Part shown: piece by piece, positions 6,001-9,000 of the stretch | Layout of the letters: each line of letters begins with the position of its first letter | Position numbering within the stretch: position 1 is the stretch's first letter | Source of the DNA: Escherichia coli | GTDB taxonomy: Bacteria > Pseudomonadota > Gammaproteobacteria > Enterobacterales > Enterobacteriaceae | Direction: 5' to 3' (one strand) | NCBI RefSeq assembly: GCF_045037415.1 | Contig: NZ_CP173438.1 | DNA: 64,000 nt | Program-made: the position numbers

Positions 6001-9000
6001 AGACTTCTACGACTGATTTCAGCCGACATGAGCGCCTCTGTGTTATGGATTTTCATCATTACTCACTTATTGCTTTTCAAACAAAATGTCATGTCAAAAT
6101 TTATGGCCGTAGTGGGTTATATTTTTTCGATCTCGACCAGATTAGTGTGCTGCGGGTTTCCCTTCGCCAGTGGTGAAGGGCGCAGAGTGGTTAGCGTATT
6201 CACACAGCCGCCGTGGTCGATTTTATCGCCAGACATATTGGCCTCGTGCCAGGCTCCCTGGCCCATAGCACTAACTCCAGGGAGAATGCGTGGTGTCACT
6301 TTGGCTGGTAGCCGAACTTCGCCACGATGGTTAAACACCCGCACCATATCGCCGTTGGCAATCCCACGTTTCTGTGCATCTATAGGGTTGATCCACACTT
6401 CCTGACGGCAGGCTGCCTTCAGGACATCAATGTTGCCGTAGGTCGAGTGCGTACGGGATTTGTAATGGAAACCAAACAGTTGCAGTGGGAAGGTACTACG
6501 TTCAGGGGAGTCCCACCCTTCAAAGGTTGAGGCATAAACCGGCAGTGGGCTTATCACTTCATCTTTTTCCAGTTCCCAGGTACGGGCAATTTCCGCCAGC
6601 TTGCTGGAATAAATTTCAATCTTACCGGAAGGCGTTTTAAGTGGATTTGCCTCGGGGTCGTCACGAAATGCTTTGTAGGCGACAAAATGACCATTGGGAT
6701 CTTTACGCTTATAGATACCCATTTTTTTTAATTCGTCGTAAGACGGTAACGCCGGATCTTTGGCAAGCATTTTGGCGTACAGATGTTGTAACCATTGTTC
6801 TTGCGTGCGACCTTCAGTGAACTTTTGATAGACGTCAGGTCCAAGACGTTTCGCGACTTCACTCAGGATCCAGTAAATTGGTTTGCGTTCGAATTTTTCG
6901 CTGGTGACAGGCTGGAGGAAAATGAGATATCCCATGTTACCGGCGTAGTCGTTAGGAATAATATCTTCCTGCTCAACGGTCATTAGGTCTGGCAGCAGAA
7001 TGTCGGCATATTTTGCCGATGAGGTCATAAAGTTTTCGATGACCACAATCATTTCGCATTTCGATTCGTCCTGCAGAATTTCATGCGTTTTGTTGATGTC
7101 AGAATGCTGATTAACCAGGGTATTTCCCGCGTAGTTCCAGATGAACTTAATGGGCACATCTAGTTTATCTTTGCCCCGGACGCCGTCGCGGATTGCCGTC
7201 ATTTGCGGGCCATGATCGATAGCATCTGTCCAACTGAAGCAGGAGATTGACGTTTTGACCGGATTATCCAGCACCGGCAGGCGTTCGATGGTAATGGTGT
7301 AGGTCGATTCACGCGCACCACTATTTCCGCCGCTGATGCCGACATTGCCCGTCAAAATAGGCAACATAGCAATAGCGCGTGCCGTCAGCTCGCCGTTTGC
7401 CTGCCGTTGCGGCCCCCAGCCCTGGCAGATATAAGCGGGTTTTGCTGTGCCAATTTCACGCGCCAGTTTGATGATACGGTCTACCGGGATACCTGTAATT
7501 TGCGAAGCCCACTGCGGCGTTTTCGCTGTTTTATCATCACCTTCACCAAGAATATAGGCTTTATAGTGACCATTTTTGGGTGCATCTGCGGGTAAGGTTT
7601 TTTCGTCATAGCCGACGCAGTATTTATCGAGAAAAGGTTGATCAACGAGATTTTCGTTAATCAATACCCAGGCAATACCCGCAACCAGCGCGGCATCGGT
7701 GCCCGGGCGAATAGGAAGCCATTCATCTTCACGACCAGCAGCCGTATCGGTATATCGCGGATCGATAACAATCATTTTTGCGTTCGATTTCTCGCGCGCT
7801 TTTTCAAGAAGATAAGTGATGCCACCGCCGCTCATGCGGGTTTCAGCCGGGTTGTTACCAAACATCACGACCAGCTTGCTGTTTTCAATATCCGTGGTGC
7901 TGTTGCCATCATTACTGCCGTAGGTGTAGGGCATGGCACAGGAAATTTGCGCAGTGCTGTAGGAGCCATACTGGTTTAGTGAACCGCCGTAGCAGTTCAT
8001 CAGGCGTTTGACCGCCGAGGCTGATGGAGAAGAGCGGGTCATATTGCCGCCAACAATCCCCGAAGAGTACTGAATATATACAGCCTCATTGCCATATTGT
8101 TCGACGGTTTTTTTCAGGCTACTGGCGATAGTATCCAGGGCTTCATCCCAGCTAATCCGTTCGAATTTGCCTTCGCCGCGTTTGCCCACGCGTTTCATTG
8201 GGTAATTCAGGCGATCGGGATGATTAATACGCCGACGGATGGAGCGACCGCGCAAACAGGCGCGTACCTGATGGTTGCCATACTTGTCGCTGCCGGTGTT
8301 GTCAGTTTCCACCCAGGTCACTTCATTATCTTTAACATGCAGACGAAGTGCACAGCGGCTACCACAGTTGACGGAACAGGCACCCCAGACCACTTTTTCG
8401 CTGGCCTGTTGTACCGCTGCTGCTGCACTGCGCAGGGTAAACGGCAAAGAAAAACCGCCTGCAGCCAGCGCCAGAGAACCTATCGCAGTAGATTTAACGA
8501 GTGTTCTGCGGCTGATGCCCACCATTTGTTCATTTTTGGACATAACTCACTCCCTGTTCTTTATCGTTATATAAATGTTTATATATTGAATATTTAGCGC
8601 GCTAACAATAGAGGGAATCTACCCATTTGGGGTTAATAATTATTAATCCATATCAATAGAAGGGTATGAGTAATAAGGTGGGGTTATGTTGAATGTTCAA
8701 ATCGCCGGATGTGTCGCATCCGGCGTTCAGTCGATAATGTGTTACTGCGGTTCGGCAGGCGCGCCATCCTGGGTAGACTGCGCGGGAGCAGAGACGTTAC
8801 CGCTGGTGGTACGGGTGTAGAGAATTTTATGCGTATCATTAGCGCAATGCCCGACGACCTGGGAATCAGGCTGATCAACCTGGTCATTGGGTACAATACT
8901 TAACGTGAAGCTGCTTTCGGGTACGCCATTATTGATAATGCGCTGTGATATATCGCTCTGTATGCGCTCACAGGATCCCGGCGCGGCGAGTACCGTGGGT

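Follow-up and report, generated by a model that had tools for sequence, protein, structure and literature searches.

Class II FNR promoters such as those of narG, nirB and yfiD carry an inverted repeat of the TTGAT-N4-ATCAA type at about -41.5, where it replaces the -35 element and brings about anaerobic activation, and the ynfE promoter of Escherichia coli follows the same scheme. The closest paralogous system is promoter P1 of dmsABC, which has its FNR site at -41.5. ModE reportedly acts at dmsA as well, in work by McNicholas et al. 1998. The regulation of dmsA includes activation by FNR and repression by NarL (Myers et al. 2013, PMC3688515). Among orthologous systems, the selenate-reductase operon srnABCD of Enterobacter cloacae SLD1a-1, which corresponds to ynfE, has ttgatgaggattaa as its named FNR site (PMC12724226).

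The ynfE control region resembles both of these systems. It aligns with dmsABC P1 over a shared TTGATA..GA..AATAATTA core; each promoter has a non-consensus second FNR half-site, and a ModE-type palindrome lies downstream in both. The two differ in where the half-site mismatch falls (AACAA in dmsA, ATTAA in ynfE), in the distance from the FNR site to the ModE-like element, which is about 19 bp longer in dmsA, and in their NarL heptamers, those of dmsA being unlike those of ynfE. As for srnABCD, the named site is the sequence at the homologous position of the Enterobacter loci that we compared, and it carries the same ATTAA half-site as ynfE. Here, the differences lie in the spacer (GAGG in Enterobacter, ATGG in ynfE), in one extra base at the -10 region, and in the leader, which has no ModE-like palindrome in Enterobacter.

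Results

The ynfD-ynfE intergenic region

The window, by which we mean the whole 64-kb stretch of DNA analysed here, is from E. coli, and the 1 kb around the motif, spanning ynfC, ynfD and ynfE, is 100% identical to several complete genomes, e.g. that of strain 4/1-1. Both ynfE (6117..8543, ATG at 8543) and ynfD (8742..9047) lie on the minus strand, so that positions 8544-8741 form the entire 198-bp intergenic region. On its ynfE side, the ribosome-binding region GGGAGTGAGTT (8544..8555, minus strand) precedes the ATG and is 85% conserved. On its ynfD side, directly 3' of the stop codon, the minus strand carries a GC-rich, REP-like hairpin, GCCGGATG-CGACA-CATCCGGC (8704..8724; -16.9 kcal/mol, z = -3.55), which was missed by a consensus terminator scan because it has no long T run. 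This hairpin is probably a 3' terminator or stabiliser of ynfD that separates the gene from the ynfE promoter. Neither an Rfam search over the whole window nor a permissive scan of 8400-9200 returned an RNA family in the intergenic region, and the possibility of a riboswitch or leader RNA, e.g. a Moco motif, was dropped on the strength of these empty scans. The only Rfam family in the window is the Hfq-binding sRNA STnc560, a full-length match of 282 bits at 22218-22431 (+), near mgtS and dgcZ.

The operon served by the ynfE promoter also differs from its K-12 counterpart. Its second gene, ynfF (minus strand, about 4487-6059), is a pseudogene in this strain: relative to K-12, 580 bp and 274 bp are missing (junctions 4568/4569 and 5342/5343), and both losses shift the reading frame. 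The RefSeq annotation of an identical strain likewise describes ynfF as frameshifted. The junction of the 580-bp deletion is found in 545 of 5,426 complete E. coli genomes.

An FNR-type motif upstream of ynfE

A previous inspection of this DNA, referred to here as the sequence-only reading, had pointed to TTAAT-CCAT-ATCAA about 100 bp upstream of ynfE as a candidate FNR site with one mismatch, set in an AT-rich promoter region. All of this was borne out. The plus strand reads TTAATCCATATCAA at 8643-8656 and the ynfE strand TTGATATGGATTAA (8643..8656, minus strand), with the motif centred on 8649.5, which leaves 106.5 bp between this centre and the first base of the ynfE start codon. Nine of the ten consensus positions of TTGAT-N4-ATCAA agree, the sole mismatch being a C to T change at position 12, and the GC content of the intergenic region is 0.31-0.35, compared with 0.5-0.6 in the flanking genes. 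The bare consensus pattern is not above chance in the window: allowing one mismatch or fewer, it occurs 5 times in the 64 kb, with 4.24 +/- 2.1 occurrences expected. Within one given region of 198 bp, a chance match is expected about 0.013 times.

The motif was also scored in a matrix scan for FNR. We used a symmetrised position weight matrix built from 62 other ChIP-bound sites (Myers et al. 2013 Table S6), from which ynfE was omitted. With this matrix, the site scores 12.85 bits and takes rank 5 among all positions of the window; 5 positions score at least 12.85 bits, compared with 1.5 expected in random 64 kb, and two of the higher-scoring matches belong to the ydfZ double site, which is itself part of the training set. 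The training sites range from 11.4 to 20.3 bits, which puts ynfE, in contrast to the canonical class II promoters, within the lowest 11% of bound training sites, owing to the T that replaces C in one of its half-sites. Taken by its letters alone, the motif would pass as a reasonable yet weak FNR candidate for which the context decides.

Two other places in the window scored well with the same matrix. The top match, TTGATTTAAATCAC at 25025-25038, reaches 17.4 bits and lies inside marB; for the identical K-12 sequence, no in vivo binding of FNR is listed (Myers et al. 2013, PMC3688515). A high score at a site that is not bound in K-12 means that the score alone does not predict occupancy. At 17011-17030, in front of ydfZ, which encodes a putative selenium delivery protein, two high-scoring sites, TTGATCAAAAACAA and GTGAGCTTGATCAA, overlap, and both are ChIP-bound in K-12. 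Their distance from the ynfE promoter is only 8.4 kb in this strain and about 29 kb in K-12; the interval presumably is shorter here because it does not contain the Qin prophage.

FNR occupancy and expression at the identical K-12 site

E. coli K-12 MG1655 has the same 14-mer at an equal distance from the ynfE ATG and between the same flanking genes. The K-12 motif occupies 1,657,956-1,657,969 in NC_000913.3, which corresponds to 1,655,980-1,655,993 in the older U00096.2 (an offset of 1,976). The element described here is the published K-12 ynfE FNR site in another strain and is, as such, already known. Between the FNR site and the ATG, the strain analysed here differs from K-12 at four positions, three of them in the core promoter and one in the leader. 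Given as the base in this strain followed by the base in K-12, these are 8637 (A/C), 8629 (C/A, within the NarL-like site described below), 8617 (T/C, within the -10 hexamer, TAGATT vs TAGACT) and 8576 (A/T, in the leader). The experimental data on the ynfE promoter all stem from K-12 and not from this strain.

In the genome-wide study of FNR, Table S6 has the entry TTGATATGGATTAA, ynfE, +, 1655980, with a PatSer score of 13.01 and ln p of -11.5, as a predicted FNR site coinciding with a ChIP-seq peak for FNR (Myers et al. 2013, PMC3688515). This ln p passes the published PatSer threshold of -10.75. The ynfE peak is found in both ChIP-chip and ChIP-seq (Table S5). Most of the other genomic sites with ATTAA in Table S6 were not bound (Myers et al. 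2013, PMC3688515). Table 1 of the same study gives FNR as a direct activator of ynfEFGH-dmsD, also called ynfEFGHI, through one site at -40.5, and reports a higher sigma-70 occupancy at ynfE without O2; in Table S2, the sigma-70 values at ynfE are 27 and 709, which we take as aerobic and anaerobic, respectively (Myers et al. 2013, PMC3688515). In the comparison of wild type with delta-fnr, the entry for the operon is 'Activated' (Table S8), and the ynfE ratio in the comparison of aerobic and anaerobic wild type is 0.027 (Table S12; Myers et al. 2013, PMC3688515). Read as aerobic over anaerobic, this ratio amounts to an anaerobic induction of about 37-fold. FNR occupancy, FNR-dependent and anaerobic expression, and the position at -40.5 are established by these published data on the identical K-12 sequence, and the proposal of the sequence-only reading that an FNR-type site would suit this anaerobic operon agrees with them.

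Independent work on the promoter is described in later papers. Three of them credit FNR activation of the ynfE promoter to Xu, Busby & Browning 2009, and two of these three, among them PMC6561318, credit NarL repression to it as well. With a reporter of its own, PMC6561318 again observed anaerobic expression and its repression by nitrate.

Position relative to the transcription start

The start behind the published -40.5 is the EcoCyc start as used by Myers et al. 2013. Converted via the K-12 locus, it falls on an A at 8609 (minus strand), which gives a predicted leader of 66 nt. This leader reconciles the 106.5 bp to the ATG with a position of about -41 from the start, i.e. the class II position. 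The sequence-only reading had called the spacing only approximate; its distance was right, but it had been measured from the start codon, and the leader accounts for the rest. That reading had also allowed for a start that would place the motif off the class II position. At -40.5, the published position does not do so: it differs by a single base from the canonical -41.5 and is shared by several other promoters, including those of pykA, nikA, focA-pflB and yfiD (Myers et al. 2013, PMC3688515). Seven nucleotides upstream of 8609, a putative -10 hexamer, TAGATT (TAGACT in K-12; 8616..8621, minus strand), has a column conservation of 93%. The ynfE start is absent from the transcription start tables of Kim et al. 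2012, and a scan of 8400-9200 for consensus sigma-70 promoters and terminators made no calls. Such silence is what an activator-dependent promoter without a -35 match would give; it agrees with activator dependence and is in itself uninformative.

The same data bear on how FNR would act once bound. Its role could be anti-repressive or architectural, or it could activate a different start in a class I-like manner, and there are reasons to consider this: the start is the one predicted from the published position, the site misses the canonical -41.5 by 1 bp, and the published ChIP-seq summit, at 1,656,036, is offset from the motif centre by about 49 bp in the downstream direction (Myers et al. 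2013, PMC3688515). However, the -10-like hexamer and the block around the start are conserved across genera with constant spacing to the FNR site, and the published -40.5 is shared by the other promoters named above. We regard a role other than class II as very unlikely, and class II activation as the preferred reading.

Right after the predicted start, at +5 to +16 of the leader, we observed a perfect 12-bp palindrome, TTAGCGCGCTAA (8594-8605, minus strand). Its ATTAGC part is nearly invariant in the multi-genus alignment, and Enterobacter, Lelliottia and Leclercia have a hairpin-like CCCGG...CGGG repeat where E. coli has the palindrome. The element may form a structure in the leader or be contacted by a protein.

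Conservation across genera and within E. coli

Orthologous loci were collected, one genome per species, with a DNA-level pattern that encodes the twin-arginine peptide of YnfE, SRRTLVKSTAIG. Of the 28 loci obtained, 27 are YnfE orthologues. All are from Enterobacteriaceae, with the genera Escherichia, Citrobacter, Enterobacter, Lelliottia, Leclercia, Silvania, Pseudenterobacter and Superficieibacter represented alongside metagenome-assembled genomes (MAGs). The remaining one, from Shimwellia, is DmsA-like and was excluded. The pattern captured no Salmonella or Klebsiella. As the anchor is coding sequence, the comparison of the upstream regions is unbiased. The Superficieibacter locus has only 166 bp of upstream sequence; it was scanned and left out of the alignment.

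In 24 of the 27 other-species loci, the best match to the FNR matrix within the 320 bp scanned upstream is TTGA(T/C)-N4-ATTAA, with GTTAA in one of them. These matches lie 93-110 bp from the ATG and have a variable spacer in most cases. Enterobacter genomosp. O departs from this distance, with its FNR site at about -227 from the ATG, because its leader contains an insertion of ~125 bp, placed downstream of the promoter and ahead of the ribosome-binding site. We take this insertion (…GAATCCCCAGGAGCGTACATAAGTACGTGACTGGGGTGAG…) to resemble an ERIC/IRU repeat. In Superficieibacter and in the MAG UBA5654, the best match lies elsewhere, and only a degenerate TTGAC-N5-GATAA is present where the site would be expected by homology, about 103-104 bp upstream of the ATG. 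Enterobacter sp. BIGb0383 has its best match at the homologous spot in a degenerate form, TTGACTCAGAATAA.

The multi-genus alignment shows how this conservation is distributed. Column conservation is 93% and 97% in the two half-sites and 70% in the 4-bp spacer, compared with 66% in the stretch from the FNR site to the NarL-like site, 68% in the leader and 51% in the upstream intergenic DNA. Conserved arms around a drifting spacer are the footprint that would be expected of a dimeric factor reading two arms. The non-consensus T of ATTAA is kept in the great majority of orthologous loci and in nearly all genera sampled.

Within E. coli, the segment with the FNR site is the least polymorphic part of the region among 5,387 genomes that carry the locus. 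A 30-mer comprising the site and the 14 bases upstream of it has an exact copy in 5,031 of them, as opposed to 1,273 for an overlapping 30-mer shifted downstream and 545 for the adjacent 30-mer upstream, the latter being the same count as that of the ynfF deletion junction given above. Because a 30-mer that reaches the flanking A/C polymorphism at 8637 gives a confounded count, the site was counted with the 30-mer that extends upstream and avoids it.

These observations, together with the K-12 data, leave little room for a different binder or for coincidence. The sites of CRP resemble those of FNR, both being inverted repeats that often have AT-rich flanks, which makes another member of the CRP/FNR family, such as CRP, a conceivable main binder. 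A TTGA half-site and N4 spacing are, however, the signature that tells FNR from CRP: the motif has TTGA and not GTGA, its arms are separated by N4 and not N6, the ChIP signal at the site is that of FNR, and expression is fnr-dependent. A CRP site was rejected on half-site sequence and spacing, and we consider another main binder extremely improbable. That the motif is a chance FNR-like 14-mer without a regulatory role, as the AT-richness of the region and a frequency of 5 against 4.24 for matches with one mismatch or fewer might suggest, is hardly credible. It is in effect refuted by what has been published for the identical K-12 sequence, namely ChIP occupancy and the dependence of expression on FNR, by half-sites conserved in at least eight genera in which spacer and flanks drift, and by the low polymorphism in E. 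coli.

NarL-like and ModE-like elements

Downstream of the FNR motif, a pair of heptamers in the 7-2-7 arrangement, TAACCCC-AA-ATGGGTA (8620..8635, minus strand), forms a candidate NarL operator. A scan for NarL sites had been suggested in the sequence-only reading too; the pair has 2 mismatches to TACYYMT-NN-AKRRGTA, and such matches occur at chance frequency (4 in the window, 3.6 expected). The centre of the pair, 8627.5 or about -18.5, is 22 bp downstream of the FNR centre, and the pair overlaps the spacer and the -10 element. In the multi-genus alignment, the NarL-like site stays in register across genera with a right heptamer that is 84% conserved, and in Enterobacter it is near-perfect (TACCCCC-AA-ATAAGTA). 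Its overlap with the -10 hexamer makes it the obvious candidate operator for the reported nitrate repression, and, judging from its sequence and placement, it is most likely the element through which NarL would repress ynfE.

Further downstream, in the ynfE leader at about +22 to +47, lies a strong ModE-like palindrome, CAATATATAAACATTTATATAACGAT (8563..8588, minus strand). Compared with CG-n-TATAT-N7-TAYAT-a-n-CG, CAATATATAAACATTTATATAACG has one mismatch in an arm; it is the only match to this pattern in the window, where 0.11 would be expected, and it aligns with same-pattern matches upstream of K-12 modA, moaA and dmsA. The palindrome is conserved in Escherichia species, partly conserved in Citrobacter and absent in Enterobacter. 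Among the papers searched, none linked ModE to ynfE. A molybdate input through this palindrome is possible.

Discussion

Considering the evidence as a whole, we are highly confident that the motif is best explained as the one FNR operator from which the sigma-70 promoter of ynfEFGH-dmsD is controlled, acting by class II activation. Our own contribution to this is the sequence match, the conservation across genera and the low polymorphism of the site, all observed directly. In the absence of oxygen, [4Fe-4S]-FNR would dimerise and bind TTGATATGGATTAA about 40.5 bp upstream of the start. The bound protein would overlap the -35 region and stand in for the missing -35 element, recruiting and activating sigma-70 RNA polymerase via class II contacts, as would be expected by analogy with FNR promoters at about -41.5. 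Transcription would then begin near 8609 and run through the 66-nt leader into ynfE. In the presence of nitrate, phospho-NarL would repress the promoter, most likely via the 7-2-7 site between the FNR site and the -10 element. The exact -10 hexamer and the NarL operator in this scheme are those that we infer from the sequence.

The likeness to dmsA allows a broader view. The ynfE control region could copy the P1 module of dmsA and combine three inputs, in which case FNR would act through the weak ATTAA half-site, NarL through the 7-2-7 site, and ModE through an operator in the leader. We offer this only as a tentative proposal, which we think is somewhat unlikely to hold in full.

Finally, we would like to place these findings into context. 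As the K-12 site was mapped and verified by ChIP years ago, its presence here carries little weight beyond the correct annotation of the locus. What our analysis adds is modest: a conserved non-consensus half-site, a layout like that of dmsA and a ModE-like palindrome in the leader. The conservation of the ATTAA half-site across genera suggests that a weak site was selected rather than tolerated. Through the FNR site, oxygen switches an operon whose products are a selenate/tellurate, DMSO-reductase-like enzyme and DmsD. If the three-input proposal were true, the ModE operator would add control by molybdate to this switch in Escherichia and Citrobacter, but not in Enterobacter.
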